Below the pieces are notes generated by a model. The model was not told the DNA's origin and did not search any database. It saw only the letters and a program-made list of their open reading frames with translations. The translations under genes were made by a program, and so were the position numbers. A stretch of DNA of 64,000 nt, from NCBI RefSeq assembly GCF_048403405.1, contig NZ_CP183129.1. One strand, 5' to 3'. The stretch is from Escherichia coli. Lineage in GTDB: Bacteria > Pseudomonadota > Gammaproteobacteria > Enterobacterales > Enterobacteriaceae. Shown one piece after another: positions 5,320-14,485 of this stretch (position 1 is its first letter; the number at the start of each line of letters is the position of its first letter).

Positions 5320-5946
5320 CTAGAGTTCGTATTGAACTCCTTTGACTACACCAATGATGAGGCAATTACCATTGATCGGGATGTTGGGGTACCGGGGATT
5401 TAATGGCACTAAAAACTTTTGAGGGCCATCGATAACTAATTTTTTTACTGTGGCTTCGTTTGTTCCATCAAGTCTAGCGATGACTATTTTTCCATGCCGG
5501 GGTTCTGCATCAGGATCTACAATCACTGTTGCGCCTTCTGGTATTGTTGGGAGGCCGTTAGGGTTAGTCATGGAGTCGCCTTTAACCTCCAATGCAAATG
5601 AGTTATCACCAATCTTTAATGATGTATCTACCCACTTGTCTACTTCACTAAACACTTCTGCTGTCCTGCACTCAGTAAACTGCCCAGCCTGAACCCACGA
5701 GATTACAGGAACTCTGCGCATGTTTGTGACGAGTTTGCCTTCAAACTCCGCACCATAAAGAATGTAATCTATTGACGTATTGAAGAACTTCGCTAATTTT
5801 GAAAGTGCTTCCCCACCAGGGACATTGATGTCTTTCTCCCAGTACCCCACAGCAACGTCACTTACTCCACAAAATTTACCCAATTCTTTCTGGGACGTTC
5901 TGGTAACTCTTCTCAGAGCTTTTATACGCTGACCAACCGTTTCCAT
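5320..5946 (-). CDS. cI: CI-type prophage repressor (HTH_XRE plus S24 LexA-like peptidase)
   Basis: 208 aa; N-terminal HTH, C-terminal GDSM serine and downstream Lys typical of S24 autocleaving repressors. Confidence 0.85.
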   Translation of the reverse strand: METVGQRIKALRRVTRTSQKELGKFCGVSDVAVGYWEKDINVPGGEALSKLAKFFNTSIDYILYGAEFEGKLVTNMRRVPVISWVQAGQFTECRTAEVFSEVDKWVDTSLKIGDNSFALEVKGDSMTNPNGLPTIPEGATVIVDPDAEPRHGKIVIARLDGTNEATVKKLVIDGPQKFLVPLNPRYPNIPINGNCLIIGVVKGVQYEL

Positions 5947-7201: not shown

Positions 7202-7233
7202 GGGACGATCATGAGCAAACCAGTAATGATTGA
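7042..7233 (+). CDS. Hypothetical small protein (TTG start with AAGGAG SD)
   Basis: 63 aa; AAGGAG at 7028-7033, 8 nt before TTG; charged Trp-containing composition. Confidence 0.3.
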
Positions 7234-8068
7234 TTCTGATAATTCTGGGCGTTATATTGTTCTGGCAGCGGCAAAATCCGTTGCCGGGATTGGCGTCCTG
7301 AAATTGATTACTGAGCATAACCGCGCTCATGCGGTTTTTTCGTGTCATGAGCATTGCTACGCCCAAATTATGGTGGGGCGTACAGGGCCGACTTCGGTCG
7401 GGCCGGGTTCGGTAGTCTCCGGTAACGCCAACCCTGTACGTCTCACCACCTCTGTGATTGGCGTCCCATGTGGTGAGTTTTCTAAAAAACTGACTACCGG
7501 GGCTGTCACTATGACTACTCTCCCAACCCTCTCTCAACCTGAAATTGCCATCGTTGATGGTCAGGCTGTTACATCTTCTTTGGCTGTTGCTGACTTCTTC
7601 TCTAAACGTCATGACGATGTTCTGAAAAAGATTCGCATTTTGGATTGTTCTCCAGAGTTTTGTGCCCGCAATTTTGCGGAGACATCAATTTTGGTACGCC
7701 AGCCCAACGGCGGTACTCGCAAACTACCTTGCTATCAAATAACCCGCGATGGCTTTGCGTTTCTTGCTATGGGTTTCACGGGTAAACGTGCTGCCCAGTT
7801 CAAAGAGGCATACATCAATGCCTTTAACCAGATGGAACAGGCGCTGATCGGAAAGGTTGATACTTCATGTGTCGCGCACAATGCCCACGTTGTTTACCTC
7901 TACATGGCTGAAATTCACCGCGTTTGGTTAGAACAACTTTATCCGATGCTGGTTTCAGTTCAGTCTCCGCTGGCTTCATCGCTCTACGACTACATCAACG
8001 ATGGTGTATTCGTTGCCGGGCTGGTGGACTCGGAACTGAACGAAAAGCATAAGGAGGTGCGTAAGTGA
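7211..8068 (+). CDS. Rha-family phage regulatory protein with ~100-aa N-terminal extension
   Basis: Rha-type segment starts at internal ATG 7511 (MTTLPTLSQPEIAIVDGQAVTSSL...); no stop between 7211 and 7511. Confidence 0.6.
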   Translation: MSKPVMIDSDNSGRYIVLAAAKSVAGIGVLKLITEHNRAHAVFSCHEHCYAQIMVGRTGPTSVGPGSVVSGNANPVRLTTSVIGVPCGEFSKKLTTGAVTMTTLPTLSQPEIAIVDGQAVTSSLAVADFFSKRHDDVLKKIRILDCSPEFCARNFAETSILVRQPNGGTRKLPCYQITRDGFAFLAMGFTGKRAAQFKEAYINAFNQMEQALIGKVDTSCVAHNAHVVYLYMAEIHRVWLEQLYPMLVSVQSPLASSLYDYINDGVFVAGLVDSELNEKHKEVRK

Positions 8069-9006: not shown

Positions 9007-9497
9007 TCATGAGTCTTTTGAATGAAGTTCAGAAATTCATTGAAGCCCATCCGGGCTGTACTTCCGGAGACATTGCGGATGCTTTTGCAGGTTACTCACG
9101 GCAGCGCGTACTGCAGTCAGCAAGCAAGTTACGTCAGAGTGGGCGTGTGGCTCACCGTTGTGAAGGGAAAACACGCAGACATTTCCCACACCAGGCTGAG
9201 ATATCGCAGGAGGAGAAACTGCAACCTGTTCTTGAAACCATACCTGTGAGCAATTTCTATGTCGGCACTAACGACCCCTGGGTGATTTTGTGCCTGACCC
9301 GTCAGGCTGAAGAACTGGAGTCCAGGGGCTTATACCGTCGTGCTGCAACGGTGTGGATGGCGGCATTCCGTGAAAGCCACTCCCAGCCAGAACGAAACAA
9401 TTTTCTGGCGCGTCGTGAGCAGTGCTTACAGAAAAGCAGCAAGCGCGCAGCATCGGGTGAAGAGTGGTATCTGTCAGGGAATTACGTGGGGGCTTAA
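9003..9497 (+). CDS. PerC/ANR-like transcriptional regulator (tentative)
   Basis: 164 aa; segment AEELESRGLYRRAATVWMAAF resembles the PerC-family signature; recalled similarity only. Confidence 0.35.
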   Translation: MIMSLLNEVQKFIEAHPGCTSGDIADAFAGYSRQRVLQSASKLRQSGRVAHRCEGKTRRHFPHQAEISQEEKLQPVLETIPVSNFYVGTNDPWVILCLTRQAEELESRGLYRRAATVWMAAFRESHSQPERNNFLARREQCLQKSSKRAASGEEWYLSGNYVGA

Positions 9498-10150
9498 TGA
9501 GTAATAAATATTGTCAGGCACTGGTGGAACTGCGGAACAAACCAGCCCATGAACTGAAGGAAGTGGGCGATCAGTGGCGCACGCCGGACAACATTTTCTG
9601 GGGAATTAACACTCTGTTTGGCCCGTTTGTTCTGGATCTGTTTACTGACGGTGATAACGCCAAATGTGCTGCGTATTACACGGCGGAAGACAACGCGCTG
9701 GCGCATGACTGGTCAGAACGTCTTGCGGAGCTTAAAGGTGCTGCCTTTGGTAATCCCCCATACAGCCGCGCCAGTCAGCATGAGGGGCAATACATCACCG
9801 GCATGCGTTACATCATGAAACATGCCAGTGCCATGCGTGATAAGGGCGGGCGCTATGTTTTCCTGATCAAAGCTGCCACCAGCGAAGTGTGGTGGCCGGA
9901 AGATGCGGACCATATTGCTTTTATTCGCGGGCGTATTGGTTTTGAACTGCCTGCCTGGTTTATCCCGAAAGACGAAAAGCAGGTGCCAACAGGTGCTTTC
10001 TTCGCTGGTGCTATTGCTGTTTTCGACAAGACCTGGAAGGGAGCGGCAATCAGCTACATCGGGCGCGATGAACTTGAGGCATGTGGTGAGGCATTTCTGG
10101 CGCAGGTTCGCCAGCAGGCGGAAAAACTGGTCAGGGAGATGGTGGCATGA
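9497..10150 (+). CDS. Phage N6-adenine DNA methyltransferase (Dam-like, NPPY motif)
   Basis: ATG at 9497 overlaps previous stop; 217 aa; FGNPPY catalytic motif. Confidence 0.7.
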   Translation: MSNKYCQALVELRNKPAHELKEVGDQWRTPDNIFWGINTLFGPFVLDLFTDGDNAKCAAYYTAEDNALAHDWSERLAELKGAAFGNPPYSRASQHEGQYITGMRYIMKHASAMRDKGGRYVFLIKAATSEVWWPEDADHIAFIRGRIGFELPAWFIPKDEKQVPTGAFFAGAIAVFDKTWKGAAISYIGRDELEACGEAFLAQVRQQAEKLVREMVA

Positions 10151-11366: not shown

Positions 11367-12362
11367 GTGACCGTGAGAGCACTACTGACCCCTGAAATTG
11401 CCCCGCGTATGGGGATCGTATTGTTCAGACCAGGTTCAGAGCTGATGCCCCTGTTTATGCAGGGGCGTGTCCTGCTGGAGCCTGAGCCGGAACGTTATTC
11501 ATCTTTCGCCAGTGGTGCCGTTCCGGCGGCATCACAACCGCTGGCGGATGATCCTGCCGTTCGGGCCGTGTTCCGCAATGAGGCAGTGATCCGTCGTGCT
11601 GGTGGCGTGGAATGTCTTGAAAGCTGGTTACTTCGTGAAAAAGGCTGCCAGTGGCCTCATTCCGACTGGCACAGCGAGAACATGACCACAATGCGACACG
11701 CTCCGGGTGCAATCCGTCTGTGCTGGCACTGCGATAATCAGCTGCGCGATCAGTTCACGGAACGGCTGGAATCAATGGCAACGGATAACTGTGCCCGCTG
11801 GGTGTTGTCTGTTGTGCGTCGGGATCTCGGTTTTGATGACAGTCACGTTGTGACAATGCCGGAACTGTGCTGGTGGCTGATTCGTAATGATCTGGCGGAT
11901 GCCTTACCGGAAAGTGCAGCCCGTAAGGCACTGAGATTACCGAAGCCTGTTGTGCCGACTGTTACCCGGGAAAGTGACCTTGTGCCTTCGGTTCCTGCCA
12001 CCAGCATCATCCGGGATAAGGCGAAAAAGGTGCTGGCGCTGAAAGTGGATCCGGAGTCGCCGGAGTCTTTTATGTTACGCCCAAAACGTCGCCGCTGGGT
12101 TAATGAAAAGTACACGCGCTGGGTTAAGACACAGCCGTGTGCATGTTGTGGAAAGCCCGCTGATGATCCCCACCACCTGATAGGTCACGGTCAGGGTGGA
12201 ATGGGAACAAAAGCGCATGACCTTTTTGTGTTGCCTTTGTGCAGAAAGCATCACGACGAGCTGCATGCGGATACCGTGGCATTTGAAGAGAAGTATGGTT
12301 CCCAACTGGAGCTGATATTTCGTTTTATCGATCGCGCGCTGGCGATTGGTGTGCTGTCCTGA
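11367..12362 (+). CDS. NinG/DUF968-family protein with C-terminal HNH-like Cys/His cluster
   Basis: 331 aa; CACCGK...HH...CRKHHDELH. Confidence 0.55.
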   Translation: MTVRALLTPEIAPRMGIVLFRPGSELMPLFMQGRVLLEPEPERYSSFASGAVPAASQPLADDPAVRAVFRNEAVIRRAGGVECLESWLLREKGCQWPHSDWHSENMTTMRHAPGAIRLCWHCDNQLRDQFTERLESMATDNCARWVLSVVRRDLGFDDSHVVTMPELCWWLIRNDLADALPESAARKALRLPKPVVPTVTRESDLVPSVPATSIIRDKAKKVLALKVDPESPESFMLRPKRRRWVNEKYTRWVKTQPCACCGKPADDPHHLIGHGQGGMGTKAHDLFVLPLCRKHHDELHADTVAFEEKYGSQLELIFRFIDRALAIGVLS

Positions 12363-12379
12363 TTTTGTGGAGAAAGTTG

Positions 12380-12760
12380 ATGCGTGATATTCAGATGGTT
12401 CTTGAACGCTGGGGGGCATGGGCGGCAAGTGGTAACACCGGGGTGGACTATTCTCCGATCGCTGCCGGATTCAAAGGACTTTTACCATCTGCCACTAAAC
12501 CACGTCCGGCCTGCTGCGATGATGACGGACTTATCATTGAAAACTGTCTTGCTCGTCTGAAGCAGAAAAAACCTGAGGAGTATTCGCTTCTCATTGCTCA
12601 TTATCTGTTGCGAATATCAAAAAGACAGATAGCCAGGACGAGAAAGAAAAGCGAAAAAGCAATACGAATTGAGATGCAGATAGCCGAAGGGTTTATTGAC
12701 GGATGTTTGTCTGTGCTGGGGGTAAGACTGGAGATGGACGACTGGCTGCTAAAAAAGTAA
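12380..12760 (+). CDS. Late antiterminator Q (phage 82/21 type, QuuD-like)
   Basis: 126 aa from ATG 12380 (MRDIQMVLERWGAWAA...), GGAG RBS. Confidence 0.8.
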   Translation: MRDIQMVLERWGAWAASGNTGVDYSPIAAGFKGLLPSATKPRPACCDDDGLIIENCLARLKQKKPEEYSLLIAHYLLRISKRQIARTRKKSEKAIRIEMQIAEGFIDGCLSVLGVRLEMDDWLLKK

Positions 12761-12829
12761 AAAATGATTAGTGCGGTCCGCAAAAAGTATGTCAGTATGT
12801 TAAGAGTGGTTACTTCGCCACACAGCTTA

Positions 12830-12852
12830 AACCCGCCGCGAGCGGGTTTTTT
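12830..12852 (+). terminator. tR'-like intrinsic terminator downstream of Q
   Basis: Stem aacccgc/gcgggtt, loop cgcga, tttttt; about 70 nt after Q stop. Confidence 0.55.
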
Positions 12853-12914
12853 ATGGCTGAACGTTAAATGCGCTGGTGGTTGTGAATGCCGACTGCGGCG
12901 GTATTTTGGCGTGA

Positions 12915-13189
12915 CGGCGCAGGTGCCGTATACCGATGTCTGGACGCATAAACCGGTACAGTTCTATCCCGGGAAACATCCGTGCGAAAAACCGGCAGAA
13001 ATGCTGCAGCAGATAATCAGCGCTAGCAGTCGTCCGGGTGACCTGATTGCAGATTTTTTCATGGGGTCGGGTTCGACAGTGAAAGCGGCACTGGCGCTCG
13101 GGCGTCGTGCAATTGGCGTTGAGCTGGAGACTGAACGTTTTGAGCAGACGGTTCGGGAAGTACAGGATTTAGTCAGCCAGAACGGATGA
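12915..13189 (+). pseudogene. C-terminal remnant of a DNA methyltransferase
   Basis: Only the C-terminal region (KHPCEKP...GDLIADFFMGSGST) is present; the NPPY catalytic part is missing; track ORF spans the tR' hairpin. Confidence 0.45.
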
Positions 13190-13229
13190 TATTGAAGAAT
13201 TAATTACGCGTCGTTATTATGCGGCTCCC

Positions 13230-13305
13230 GGCCCTTTAGCTCAGTGGTGAGAGCGAGCGACTCATAATCGCCAGGTCGCTGGTTCAAATCCAGCAAGGGC
13301 CACCA
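13230..13305 (+). tRNA. tRNA anticodon CAU (Ile2 lysidine/Met type; ileZ-like of lambdoid and Stx phages)
   Basis: Cloverleaf read manually: acceptor ggccctt/aagggcc, anticodon loop cuCAUaa, CCA present. Confidence 0.8.
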
Positions 13306-13312
13306 TCACATA

Positions 13313-13389
13313 CCGCCATTAGCTCATCAGGATAGAGCACCAGCCTTCGAAGCTGGTTGCGCGGGGTTCGAGTCCTCGATGGCGGTCCA
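13313..13389 (+). tRNA. tRNA-Arg anticodon UCG
   Basis: Acceptor ccgccat/atggcgg, anticodon loop cuUCGaa, T-arm ggttcgagtcc. Confidence 0.75.
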
Positions 13390-13402
13390 TTATCTGTACC
13401 CT

Positions 13403-13479
13403 GCGTTGTTAGCTCAACCGGACAGAGCAATTGCCTTCTAAGCAATCGGTCACTGGTTCGAATCCAGTACAACGCGCCA
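13403..13479 (+). tRNA. tRNA-Arg anticodon UCU (argO-like)
   Basis: Acceptor gcgttgt/acaacgc, anticodon loop cuUCUaa, T-arm ggttcgaatcc. Confidence 0.8.
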
Positions 13480-13493
13480 GACTTATTTTTCCC

Positions 13494-13519
13494 GGCTCGC
13501 TTTTGCGGGCCTTTTTTTT
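13494..13519 (+). terminator. Intrinsic terminator after tRNA cluster
   Basis: ggctcgc tttt gcgggcc then 8 T. Confidence 0.6.
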
Positions 13520-13719
13520 AAATGTCTCACAATTCAGACGGTTGACAGTTGTCTGTTTTGCGGGGAGTTTGTTAAAAGAAACTGGCATGGTGAATCCCCC
13601 TGTGCGGATGGGCAATCAGCGAGTAGGTATATGGGATAATCGCGGATTCAGGTGCTGGTACTGAATTCACCGGGAGGCACCCGGCACCATGCAGTTGACT
13701 GAAACCATGTATACTCTCA

Positions 13720-13750
13720 GGCCCCACGCACATGTGTTGGGGCCTTTTTA
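13720..13750 (+). terminator. Second intrinsic terminator in spacer before holin
   Basis: ggcccca...tggggcc stem followed by ttttt. Confidence 0.45.
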
Positions 13751-13920
13751 CATGCAAAAAAAAGCCCGCATATTGATACGGGCGGCAAGGAACAAAAAAC
13801 GTGAAGTGATCTATTCAGCCAGTGGATAATACCCTGACGTTACCATATTGCGCAATCGCGCATTCTTTCTTTTTCGCTCCCCTTATAACTACGCCATCCG
13901 TTCGCTGCGGAGGTGAGGCT

Positions 13921-14136
13921 ATGAAATCCATGGATAAAATTTCAACGGGCATTGCCTACGGCACCTCCGCAGGCAGTGCTGGCTACTGGTTTTTACAGTG
14001 GCTTGATCAGGTCAGTCCGTCACAGTGGGCTGCGATTGGTGTACTGGGGAGTCTGGTTCTGGGCTTCCTGACATATCTGACTAACCTGTATTTCAAAATC
14101 AGAGAGGACCGTCGTAAGGCTGCACGGGGAGAGTAA
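13921..14136 (+). CDS. Class II holin (EssD/S21-like)
   Basis: 71 aa from ATG 13921, GGAGGTGAGG RBS; two TM segments; MKSMDK...AARGE matches DLP12 EssD family. Confidence 0.85.
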
Positions 14137-14140
14137 TTCA

Positions 14141-14485
14141 ATGACTCAAAACTATGAACTGATTGTGAAAGGGATCCGCAATTTTGAGAATAAAGTTACG
14201 GTAACTTTAGCGTTACGGGACAAAAAACGCTTTGACGGTGAAATTTTTGACCTGGACATCTCGCTGGACCGTGTTGAAGGTGCCGCGCTGGAGTTTTATG
14301 AGGAAGCAGCCAGAAGGAGCATCAGACAGGTCTTCCTGGATGTTGCTGCCGGGTTATGTGAAGGGGGTGAGCAGTCGCCGGAAAAGCGCCCCGTAATTTT
14401 AGAGGCGCAGAATGTGTGGATAACCTACAAAGGAAAGCTACCGGGAAGAATTACTGGTTCTCTGAAGACTCCACCGCTGGGCTGA
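14141..14485 (+). CDS. Hypothetical protein between holin and endolysin
   Basis: 114-aa ORF; no recognisable motif. Confidence 0.45.
   Translation: MTQNYELIVKGIRNFENKVTVTLALRDKKRFDGEIFDLDISLDRVEGAALEFYEEAARRSIRQVFLDVAAGLCEGGEQSPEKRPVILEAQNVWITYKGKLPGRITGSLKTPPLG

Follow-up and report, generated by a model that had tools for sequence, protein, structure and literature searches.

Organization of the late-operon leader

We observed that positions 12761-13920 of a 64,000-nucleotide stretch of Escherichia coli DNA (the window) lie between a Q antiterminator gene and a holin gene, the first late protein gene (Table 1). Q belongs to the short Q family and matches PHROG 79 over residues 1-123 of 126. 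For the identical sequences, PGAP gives the labels 'antiterminator Q family protein' and 'class II holin family protein'. Between the two genes lie a predicted late promoter, a methylase remnant and three tRNA genes, and positions 13481-13920 contain the tRNA terminator, a probable STnc100 promoter with its gene, a convergent small RNA (sRNA) gene with its predicted promoter, and the holin leader. Four sites have the form of an intrinsic terminator, a G+C-rich hairpin followed by a U-run (-11.7, -14.0, -19.1 and -12.8 kcal/mol). An earlier note, made from the sequence alone, had taken the region after the tRNAs for a ~400 bp spacer of non-coding DNA; this description has to be withdrawn, since two convergent sRNA genes are found there.

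Table 1 Features of the locus in window coordinates, with the evidence for each.
Feature	Position	Strand	Evidence
Q antiterminator gene, 126 aa	12380-12760	+	PHROG 79 'anti-termination protein Q-like', E 2.5e-48
Predicted late promoter pR'	12771-12805	+	Homology only
First terminator after pR' (tR' of the earlier note)	12829-12852	+	Eight-pair stem and U-run, -11.7 kcal/mol
Deletion junction	12891-12893		blastn break points
DNA methylase pseudogene, C-terminal 98/352 codons	12893-13189	+	tblastn, Pfam, PGAP
tRNA operon promoter, TTGAAG-17-TATTAT	13192-13220	+	Scan, 9/12 matches
tRNA CAU, ileZ-type tRNA-Ile2 by annotation	13230-13305	+	ARAGORN; Rfam tRNA 72.5 bits
tRNA-Arg (UCG), argN-type	13313-13389	+	ARAGORN; Rfam tRNA 56.2 bits
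tRNA-Arg (UCU), argO-type	13403-13479	+	ARAGORN; Rfam tRNA 70.1 bits
tRNA operon terminator	13494-13519	+	Seven-pair stem and U8, -14.0 kcal/mol
Conserved block upstream of STnc100, probable promoter	13542-13584	+	Invariant bases among copies
STnc100-family sRNA gene (Rfam boundaries)	13556-13755	+	RF02076, 133.1 bits (threshold 47)
Convergent predicted ~65-nt sRNA gene, EcOnc08/21/42-type	13756-13820	-	Terminator scan, fold, homology
Predicted minus-strand sRNA promoter	13826-13855	-	Hexamers and spacing invariant in 4 copies, spacer varies
Holin, class II (S21-like), first late protein gene	13921-14136	+	PHROG 9876, PHROG 20 'holin'

The predicted late promoter, with a -10 element CAGTAT at 12793-12798 and a start near 12805, aligns to the annotated late promoter of VT2-Sakai; it is a poor match to the consensus and is absent from the promoter scan output. 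Nucleotides 1-48 of the Sakai pR' transcript correspond to 12805-12852 of the window with 82% identity. The tR' hairpin that the earlier note placed after Q is present, and it is homologous to the first annotated 'possible rho-independent terminator' of VT2-Sakai and to positions 5467-5487 of the Stx2a phage Stx2_14040 (comparison record L002). A second, Sakai-like tR' was rejected as a candidate, as it is degenerate in Stx2_14040 and its site is deleted in the window. We also treated as chance an isrK match on the pR' leader (12780-12852), which at 18.3 bits and E 0.47 falls far below threshold. A genuine isrK is present elsewhere in the 64-kb window.

The methylase is reduced to its C-terminal third, as the earlier note had read it: tblastn matches 12893-13186 to a 352-aa homologue at 95% identity, over residues 255-352 alone. 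The remnant covers only model positions 134-220 of 221 in Pfam PF01555 (N6_N4_Mtase), which is short of a complete domain; it keeps the AdoMet motif FxGxG, and the catalytic DPPY motif was lost with the deleted part. On the identical sequence PGAP calls a methylase pseudogene missing its N-terminus. The tR' hairpin had been thought to overlie this remnant. Instead, the remnant starts 40 nt past the hairpin and U-run; what does span the hairpin is a mechanical ORF (12764-13189), of which the first ~43 codons do not encode methylase.

Compared with Stx2_14040, 1181 bp are missing at this place (L002 5543-6723), a segment with methylase codons 1-254 and, together with its terminator, a small ORF; the junction shows microhomology of just 2-3 nt. 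The methylase deletion is an old event and a fixed allele of the phage lineage: among 5426 complete E. coli genomes, 103 have this junction, and PhiR49_2, deposited as a phage genome, agrees with the window at 99.6% identity over the whole locus. The lysis genes of PhiR49_2 appear intact, and the methylase is the sole decayed element of the leader.

The promoter of the tRNA operon sits 10 nt upstream of the first tRNA, at an offset matching that of a 'putative tRNA promoter' annotated in VT2-Sakai, and a primary start site driving these tRNAs has been mapped in strain Sakai (PMC7547250). The three tRNAs with anticodons CAU, UCG and UCU, proposed from the sequence, are confirmed by covariance-model scores well over the 29-bit threshold of the Rfam tRNA model RF00005. 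ARAGORN labels the CAU tRNA as Met by its anticodon, and both PGAP and the annotation of the VT2-Sakai counterpart give tRNA-Ile. In tRNA-Ile2 of the ileZ type, a CAU anticodon reads AUA once it carries the lysidine modification. VT2-Sakai also has a terminator annotated at the place of the tRNA operon terminator, before stx2A. The codons AUA, AGA and CGA/CGG are used 2-4 times more by the phage than by neighbouring host genes: per 1000 codons in prophage early, prophage late and host ORFs, respectively, we counted 9.8, 4.1 and 2.3 for ATA, 6.7, 4.2 and 1.8 for AGA, and 11.6, 18.2 and 6.2 for CGA plus CGG. In a lysogen, the operon would be transcribed from its own promoter up to its own terminator, and the three tRNAs would supply decoding for these codons.

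Two small RNA genes between the tRNAs and the holin

The plus-strand gene matches the STnc100 model over its full length (1-206 of 206; E 1.5e-30). Two intrinsic terminators had been noted after the tRNAs, and both are present as plus-strand hairpins; the second, at 13719-13749 (-19.1 kcal/mol), is the terminator of STnc100 itself. The RNA has a minimum free energy of -65.3 kcal/mol (z -2.5). Across 8 copies of the family the helices contain 37 consensus pairs, 5 of them with double-sided compensatory changes, and the window copy breaks one pair through a mismatch in the second hairpin. Among the copies the 5' domain is constant and the 3' linker comes in at least four forms. In the window, neither the variable single-stranded linker (about 13693-13718) nor the sequence of the terminator resembles its counterpart in the seven other compared copies, and only 96 of the 5426 genomes have the segment that includes both (13694-13920) at megablast level. 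Further copies occur in Stx2_14040 (L002 8718-8932, 159 bits), where the family begins 75 nt past stx2B, in VT2-Sakai (208 bits), after stx1B in record L009 (177 bits), and in S88 (two copies), CFT073 and E2348/69. PasD in E2348/69 PP4 scored below the STnc100 threshold.

Upstream of STnc100, the elements TTGACA (13542-13547), TTGYCT (13549-13554) and TGtTAAAAR (13570-13578) are invariant, though the copies are only 67-70% identical overall. This block is the probable STnc100 promoter, with non-canonical spacing to a standard -10. TTGACA was rejected as a canonical -35, given that no acceptable -10 lies at 16-19 nt, and TTGYCT with an extended -10 is the likelier predicted pair. The predicted start falls near 13585, compared with a 5' end at 13556 in Rfam. 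A sigma-54 promoter was also discarded: TGGCAT at 13583-13588 has no -12 element to go with it, and the other copies do not conserve it.

The minus-strand sRNA faces STnc100. Its predicted fold (-22.7 kcal/mol, z -5.1) was equalled by none of 200 shuffles, and its terminator consists of a stem at 13783-13764 followed by U8, with compensated changes in the stem among copies. The predicted promoter combines a -35 TTGCGC (13855-13850), an 18-nt spacer and a -10 TATTAT (13831-13826), and scores 8/12 in the scan. The -35 lies inside a conserved palindrome (13849-13862), and both also occur upstream of AsxR in VT2-Sakai. A fuzzy search located the core of this sRNA in the window and in comparison records L001-L005 and L009, and the element is present in 58 phage records. 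It is also found 3' of stx1AB, where EcOnc42 has been described (PMC7547250). The family is not in Rfam 15 and is unannotated in the database records examined. RNAduplex gave no signal that either sRNA pairs with the other or with the translation start of the holin gene (z scores of -1.3 to +1.3 against shuffles, the method being poor for long RNAs), and we rejected such pairing.

Anatomy, homologies, insertion points and allele frequency are shown by the sequence comparisons. The activity of the promoters, the dependence on Hfq, the targets and read-through under Q are inferred from this arrangement and from characterized relatives, as follows. In a lysogen, the late promoter after Q would fire and its transcript would end at the first hairpin. 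Beyond the tRNA operon, the two facing sRNA genes would each use their own promoter and terminator, and by homology to their Hfq-bound EHEC and EPEC relatives both RNAs would base-pair in trans, regulating host and phage mRNAs. After induction, Q-modified RNA polymerase would pass all three plus-strand terminators and reach the holin-endolysin-Rz genes.

Cargo points and alternative readings

The earlier note had placed the locus at the site of stxAB in Stx phages and had seen no toxin genes there, and both statements are borne out. Homology to stx1, stx2 and nanS-p is absent from the entire 64 kb by tblastn; with Stx1A/B and Stx2A/B as queries, the window gave no match up to an E value of 1e-3, and the prophage does not classify as a Stx-converting phage. 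Alignment with Stx and non-Stx phages resolved the exchange boundary to 13520/13523: homology to Stx2_14040 stops at 13520 and restarts at 13523, with ~1.3 kb of stx2AB between, and the tRNA terminator forms the left edge of this insertion point. In other prophages the same point (point A) holds a DUF3927 gene (CFT073), ISEc13 (E2348/69 PP6) or an extra STnc100 copy (S88). A second variable point (point B) separates the holin from the sRNA pair; Stx phages have the nanS-p esterase there, and CFT073 has iraM with DUF1737. Neither point holds protein cargo in the window. The proposal of a cargo hotspot in an empty or decayed state thus stands as regards a hotspot without protein cargo, and fails as regards decay, which is confined to the methylase.

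Taken together, we consider it quite likely that the late-operon leader at 12761-13920 is intact and minimal and belongs to a non-Stx lambdoid prophage of E. coli. This type of locus, the ordinary late-gene leader of a non-toxigenic lambda-like prophage, is already described, and all of its components are already published or annotated. On sequence grounds, the sRNA pair is backbone common with Stx phages, and neither debris nor part of the toxin cassette. In Stx1 and Stx2a phages the convergent pair lies a short way downstream of stxB.

A former Stx or other-cargo phage that lost its cargo by deletion, including precise excision, would correspond to the decayed state. Such a history could account for a Q module, methylase and tRNAs that are 93-95% identical to those of Stx2a phages, and one deletion, that in the methylase, certainly happened nearby. 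However, the window holds no stx or nanS-p remnant, the junction at 13520/13523 is seamless, and the continuity from tRNAs through terminator to STnc100 is kept at 93% in unrelated non-Stx prophages such as S88, where 12893-13693 is unbroken; we regard cargo loss as unlikely. It is very improbable that 13520-13920 encodes small proteins instead of RNAs. The candidates are a 46-aa ORF (13689-13829), hypothetical in PhiR49_2, and a minus-strand ORF that PGAP calls a partial hypothetical protein. Public records thus annotate both, and ribosome footprints are reported on some EDL933 STnc100 copies, where the ribosome coverage value reaches 3.2 (PMC5331693). Yet neither ORF hits any PHROG family, the 46-aa ORF crosses two back-to-back terminators, the STnc100 covariance-model score is 86 bits over threshold, and conservation tracks promoter hexamers and, through compensatory changes, RNA helices rather than a reading frame.

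The 1 kb preceding the holin contains three terminators on the plus strand and one on the minus strand, and STnc100 has its second-hairpin mismatch. On these grounds the sRNA-like sequences might also be read as a terminator stack only, which would protect the lysis genes against read-through while the phage is lysogenic and would have lost regulation. This is very improbable in our judgment: the promoter elements of both RNAs are invariant in copies that are otherwise 63-70% identical, the homologues accumulate to high levels, bind Hfq and have numerous partners in RIL-seq, and insulator and regulator roles can coexist.

Within the preferred reading of an intact leader, we hypothesized that the sRNA pair is a fixed lambdoid leader module in which RNA bodies are swapped behind shared promoters, and that the minus-strand sRNA might also act as a cis antisense brake. 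Swapping is consistent with the alternation of AsxR and EcOnc42-type RNA at the minus-strand position among phages and with the different 3' linkers of STnc100. A brake is consistent with the full complementarity of the minus-strand sRNA to the part of the late transcript that lies 100-165 nt before the start of the holin gene. The combined proposal is speculative and, in our view, rather doubtful; if true, the brake would hold back leakage of late transcription and keep lysogens from lysing too early.

The main value of the analysis is correction, and the locus alone opens no new question. Intergenic stretches of prophage late leaders that resemble empty spacers between terminators contain regulatory RNA genes at high density, which standard annotation overlooks or calls hypothetical proteins. 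The stx insertion point now has base-pair-exact boundaries, and the assignment of the sRNA pair to the backbone bears on claims of sRNA evolution toward toxin regulation.

Comparison with Stx phages and their small RNAs

The first part of the leader resembles the source of StxS, the short pR'-tR' RNA of Stx1 and Stx2a phages, and of lambda 6S RNA, in which a constitutive late promoter is likewise followed by an early terminator. The predicted window product is only ~50 nt in comparison with StxS. The 74-nt functional 3' fragment of StxS and its terminator are absent, and only nt 1-48 of the 258 nt of the Sakai transcript have a counterpart. In Sakai, tR' was mapped by experiment 258 nt from pR'; the window has no equivalent of it, its tR' hairpin being the counterpart of the first of two Sakai leader terminators. 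The window Q has 126 aa, compared with the 144-aa Q clade that StxS accompanies (PMC7547250).

STnc100 (RF02076) corresponds to EHEC EcOnc27/sRNA103 and is related to EPEC PasD1/PasD2, a relation between STnc100 and PasD sRNAs having been proposed (bioRxiv 10.64898/2026.05.13.724894). Hfq-bound EcOnc27/sRNA103 overlaps STnc100 downstream of stx2B (PMC12711010), and STnc100 homologues are expressed in EDL933 lysogens, where a Northern blot showed one copy (PMC5331693). The window copy shares with the family its helices, the closing stem GCAUGGUG/CACCAUGC, the invariant CCGGGAGGCACCCGG hairpin and the terminator, as well as the location between tRNAs or stx and the holin.

The minus-strand sRNA is most similar to EPEC E2348C_1409.E2348C_1408.IGR, an RNA that is Hfq-bound by RIL-seq in E2348/69 and that its authors call homologous to EHEC EcOnc08/EcOnc21/EcOnc42. 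The two are alike in promoter hexamers, core (UUCACGUUUU..UUCCUUGCCGCCCG), terminator architecture and position convergent with STnc100, and their 3' ends coincide (published position 1444797, equal to L005 2298). They differ in the 5' part, which is 4 nt shorter in the window, in the U-rich stretch, and in terminator stem and loop (GCCCGUAU/AUGCGGGC in the window, GCCCGCG/CGCGGGC in EPEC). The predicted length is 65-69 nt, compared with 182 nt estimated by the RIL-seq authors for the EPEC homologue. In VT2-Sakai, the AsxR anti-sRNA (RF02703, phage Sp5) occupies the same place, also on the minus strand and convergent with STnc100, and shares the upstream block of -35 and palindrome. The AsxR covariance model finds AsxR in VT2-Sakai with 88 bits and gave no match in window positions 12300-14300 at E up to 1. 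The body of AsxR is unrelated to the window sRNA, and its sponge function is not transferable.

As a whole, the locus compares best with the late leader of the Stx2a phages 933W, Sp5 VT2-Sakai and Stx2_14040, which runs Q, pR'/tR', (methylase), ileZ-argN-argO, stx2AB, STnc100, nanS-p, holin. The window departs from it in lacking stx2AB at 13520/13523, nanS-p before the holin, the StxS 3' fragment and the second terminator of the leader; its methylase has 98 codons and its holin is S21-type. The backbone parts are in identical order and orientation, with 95% identity to Stx2_14040 for the Q module and 93% for the methylase C-terminus and tRNAs. The offsets of the tRNA promoter and terminator equal those annotated in VT2-Sakai, and in the Stx2a leader as in the window, STnc100 comes next and is faced by a convergent small RNA.

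Small RNA genes between the tRNAs and the holin

An earlier note on this DNA had described the stretch between the tRNAs and the holin as a non-coding spacer of ~400 bp. We observed two convergent sRNA genes there instead, one a full-length match to the Rfam family STnc100 and the other a homologue of an EPEC sRNA detected by RIL-seq; this is the sole real correction to that note. All of 13481-13920 could be assigned, to the tRNA terminator, the STnc100 promoter and gene, the minus-strand sRNA with its promoter, and a 65-nt holin leader. Both terminators claimed past the tRNAs were found, on the plus strand, and the second is STnc100's own. Reading the spacer ORFs as small proteins was a dead end, as was predicting duplexes of the sRNAs with the holin start. 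Over the sRNA genes lie two features annotated "hypothetical protein": PGAP has a partial pseudogene on the strand opposite STnc100 (13575-13733, -), and the deposited phage genome PhiR49_2 has a 46-aa CDS across both terminators (13689-13829, +). These are probably propagating annotation artefacts.

Features of the late-gene leader and its flanking genes (window coordinates)
Feature	Position	Strand	Support
Q	12380-12760		PHROG 79, E 2.5e-48
Hairpin + U-run	12829-12852		-11.7 kcal/mol
Promoter-like site TTGAAG-17-TATTAT	13192-13220		3' end 10 nt ahead of first tRNA
tRNA CAU	13230-13305		ARAGORN; Rfam tRNA model 72.5 bits
tRNA UCG	13313-13389		ARAGORN; Rfam tRNA model 56.2 bits
tRNA UCU	13403-13479		ARAGORN; Rfam tRNA model 70.1 bits
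Terminator, tRNA block	13494-13519	+	-14.0 kcal/mol
STnc100 sRNA, full-length	13556-13755	+	RF02076, 133.1 bits (gathering score 47), E 1.5e-30
Terminator, STnc100	13719-13749	+	-19.1 kcal/mol
Terminator, ~65-nt RNA	13783-13764 plus U8	-	directly past STnc100
-10 TATTAT, ~65-nt RNA	13831-13826	-	invariant
-35 TTGCGC, ~65-nt RNA	13855-13850	-	invariant
S21-type holin	start 13921

The family helices are kept, with compensatory changes, in 8 STnc100 copies from six prophages and phages. A block 5' of the gene, TTGACA..TTGYCT..TGtTAAAAR (13542-13578), is invariant among copies just 67-70% identical overall; we infer that it is the STnc100 promoter, with non-canonical spacing and a start near 13585. 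A sigma-54 reading of this promoter was a dead end. The 3' linker of the window copy (~13693-13718) is unlike those of the seven other copies compared, and no more than 96 genomes have the stretch 13694-13920, with the linker, the terminator and the minus-strand sRNA, so targets of this STnc100 are not transferable from relatives. Among the copies in the window, Stx2_14040 (an Stx2a phage), S88, E2348/69, CFT073, VT2-Sakai and an Stx1 phage, the structured 5' domain is constant and at least four unrelated 3' linkers lie just 5' of the terminator, which may represent seed swapping. E. coli S88 carries tandem copies between the tRNAs and the holin (L004 4163-4353 and 4631-4840), and the convergent minus-strand sRNA follows the second only.

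The promoter spacer of the minus-strand sRNA is fixed at 18 nt and variable in sequence, its terminator stem is compensated among copies, and the RNA has a folding energy of -22.7 kcal/mol (z -5.1). A homologue in EPEC E2348/69, the sRNA E2348C_1409.E2348C_1408.IGR, was detected by RIL-seq as Hfq-bound; its published 3' coordinate is exactly the predicted 3' end, and its authors equate it with EHEC EcOnc08/21/42. Sy et al. placed EcOnc42 3' of stx1AB (PMC7547250), and we located an EcOnc42-type element 3' of stx1AB in an Stx1 phage. At this position, convergent with STnc100, VT2-Sakai has AsxR (RF02703, 88 bits; L008 4241-4293, -; window equivalent 13756-13855, -). AsxR and the EcOnc42-type RNA have the upstream -35 and palindrome block in common, but their RNA bodies are unrelated, as if cassettes had been exchanged behind a shared promoter; this is a small point of which we know no earlier statement. 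The palindrome, TGCGCAATCGCGCA (13849-13862), overlaps the -35 and precedes a T-rich run. Every copy keeps it as GCGC-N4-GCGC, and its role could be that of an operator or of a fourth, weak plus-strand terminator.

Predicted late promoter, methylase remnant and tRNAs

Q and the hairpin 3' of it were both present, as claimed. The annotated late promoter of VT2-Sakai aligns with the region 3' of Q, and 12805-12852 is 82% identical to nt 1-48 of the pR' transcript of Sakai. This alignment suggests that the late transcript starts near 12805 and that, of the two leader terminators in Sakai, the hairpin is equivalent to the first. By sequence comparison, neither the mapped tR' of Sakai, which lies 258 nt from pR', nor the 74-nt StxS fragment is represented in the locus; tR' is a reasonable name, by position, for the predicted terminator hairpin. 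A weak isrK match on the pR' leader was a dead end. In the early region, isrK (Rfam, 68.6 bits; 7265-7341, +) adjoins a C4 antisense RNA (82.3 bits; 7366-7453, +) where a long mechanical ORF (7211-8068) begins; the pair resembles a C4-controlled antirepressor immunity module of the P1/P7 type.

The methylase is truncated, as had been noted: tblastn with the 352-aa Stx2_14040 methylase recovered residues 255-352 only (12893-13186, 95% identity), and the Pfam PF01555 match is limited to model positions 134-220 of 221. The AdoMet motif FFMGSGST is kept; the catalytic DPPY motif was in the lost part. Compared with Stx2_14040, a deletion of 1181 bp (L002 5543-6723) took out 254 codons of the methylase along with a small ORF and the terminator of that ORF, with a junction at 12891/12893 and 2-3 nt of microhomology. 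The deletion is neither a sequencing error nor private decay: of 5426 complete E. coli genomes, 103 match a 95-nt probe spanning the junction, PGAP calls the remnant a pseudogene, and PhiR49_2, a phage genome with ECOR13 as host, has 99.6% identity over 12361-14140. The statement that tR' overlays the gene applies only to the mechanical ORF 12764-13189, where methylase sequence is absent from the first ~43 codons; the remnant itself starts 40 nt past the end of the hairpin and U-run. An intact phage N-6-adenine methyltransferase in the early region (9497-10150, +; PGAP, identical sequence) may be why loss of the late methylase is tolerated.

ARAGORN and covariance-model scoring confirmed the three tRNAs, all above the 29-bit Rfam threshold. 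The VT2-Sakai annotation has a "putative tRNA promoter" at the same offset as the promoter-like site and a terminator directly past the third tRNA; in strain Sakai, a mapped primary start site drives these tRNAs (PMC7547250). ATA, AGA and CGA+CGG are 2-4 times more frequent in the window's prophage ORFs than in flanking host genes (per 1000 codons in early, late and host ORFs: ATA 9.8, 4.1, 2.3; AGA 6.7, 4.2, 1.8; CGA+CGG 11.6, 18.2, 6.2), so the tRNAs can be understood from the phage's own needs, without a toxin gene.

Prophage boundary and other elements

The prophage occupies ~1-39500, ending near 39.5 kb, and host genes follow in 40059-64000, beginning with a yecD-like ORF and aspS; further host genes, judged by their N-termini, appear to be ruvC, ruvB, znu genes, pykA, zwf, edd and eda. 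Over 12761-13920, the sequence matches that of the urine isolate E. coli ECO_2_R with 100% identity. At the prophage right end, an IS009 RNA family match (225 bits; 38050-38248, +) lies inside or beside the tail-fibre assembly region; a Pas-sRNA preprint describes IS009 as frequent near PasB. In the host part, STnc490 (146 bits; 52813-52936, -) adjoins an IS200-type transposase ORF (52345-52803, -), and CFT073 has the same pair between Q and the tRNAs (L007 1804-2395).

Cargo points and comparison with known phages

Searches by tblastn with Stx1A/B, Stx2A/B and nanS-p esterase gave no match anywhere in the 64 kb, in agreement with the reported lack of toxin genes, and no remnant pointing to stx loss was found by tblastn over the same 64 kb. 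Homology with Stx2_14040 runs up to 13520 and again from 13523, with stx2AB in between and STnc100 starting 75 nt past stx2B. VT2-Sakai and an Stx1 phage have the same arrangement, which is also in the literature (PMC12370729; PMC12711010). At this insertion point, CFT073 carries a DUF3927 gene, E2348/69 PP6 carries ISEc13 and S88 carries an additional STnc100 copy. Cargo also varies at a second point, lying past the sRNA pair and ahead of the holin: Stx phages have nanS-p there, and CFT073 has iraM and DUF1737. With different cargo at the same points in other phages, the earlier idea of a cargo hotspot was right; both points are empty of protein genes in the window prophage. The tRNA-to-STnc100 contiguity recurs in non-Stx prophages (for example S88, 93% identity). 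The sRNA pair is backbone, there with or without toxin.

In the lysogen, pR' transcripts would end at 12852, with separate promoters driving the tRNAs and each sRNA. To judge from homologous RNAs that are expressed and bind Hfq, both sRNAs would act in trans as regulators. After induction, none of the three plus-strand terminators would stop Q-modified polymerase, which would go on to transcribe the lysis genes. In conclusion, the earlier observation was largely correct and its interpretation half right. The anatomy and homologies of the locus are what we observed directly, and they are those of a well-known arrangement, every component of which was already published or annotated.
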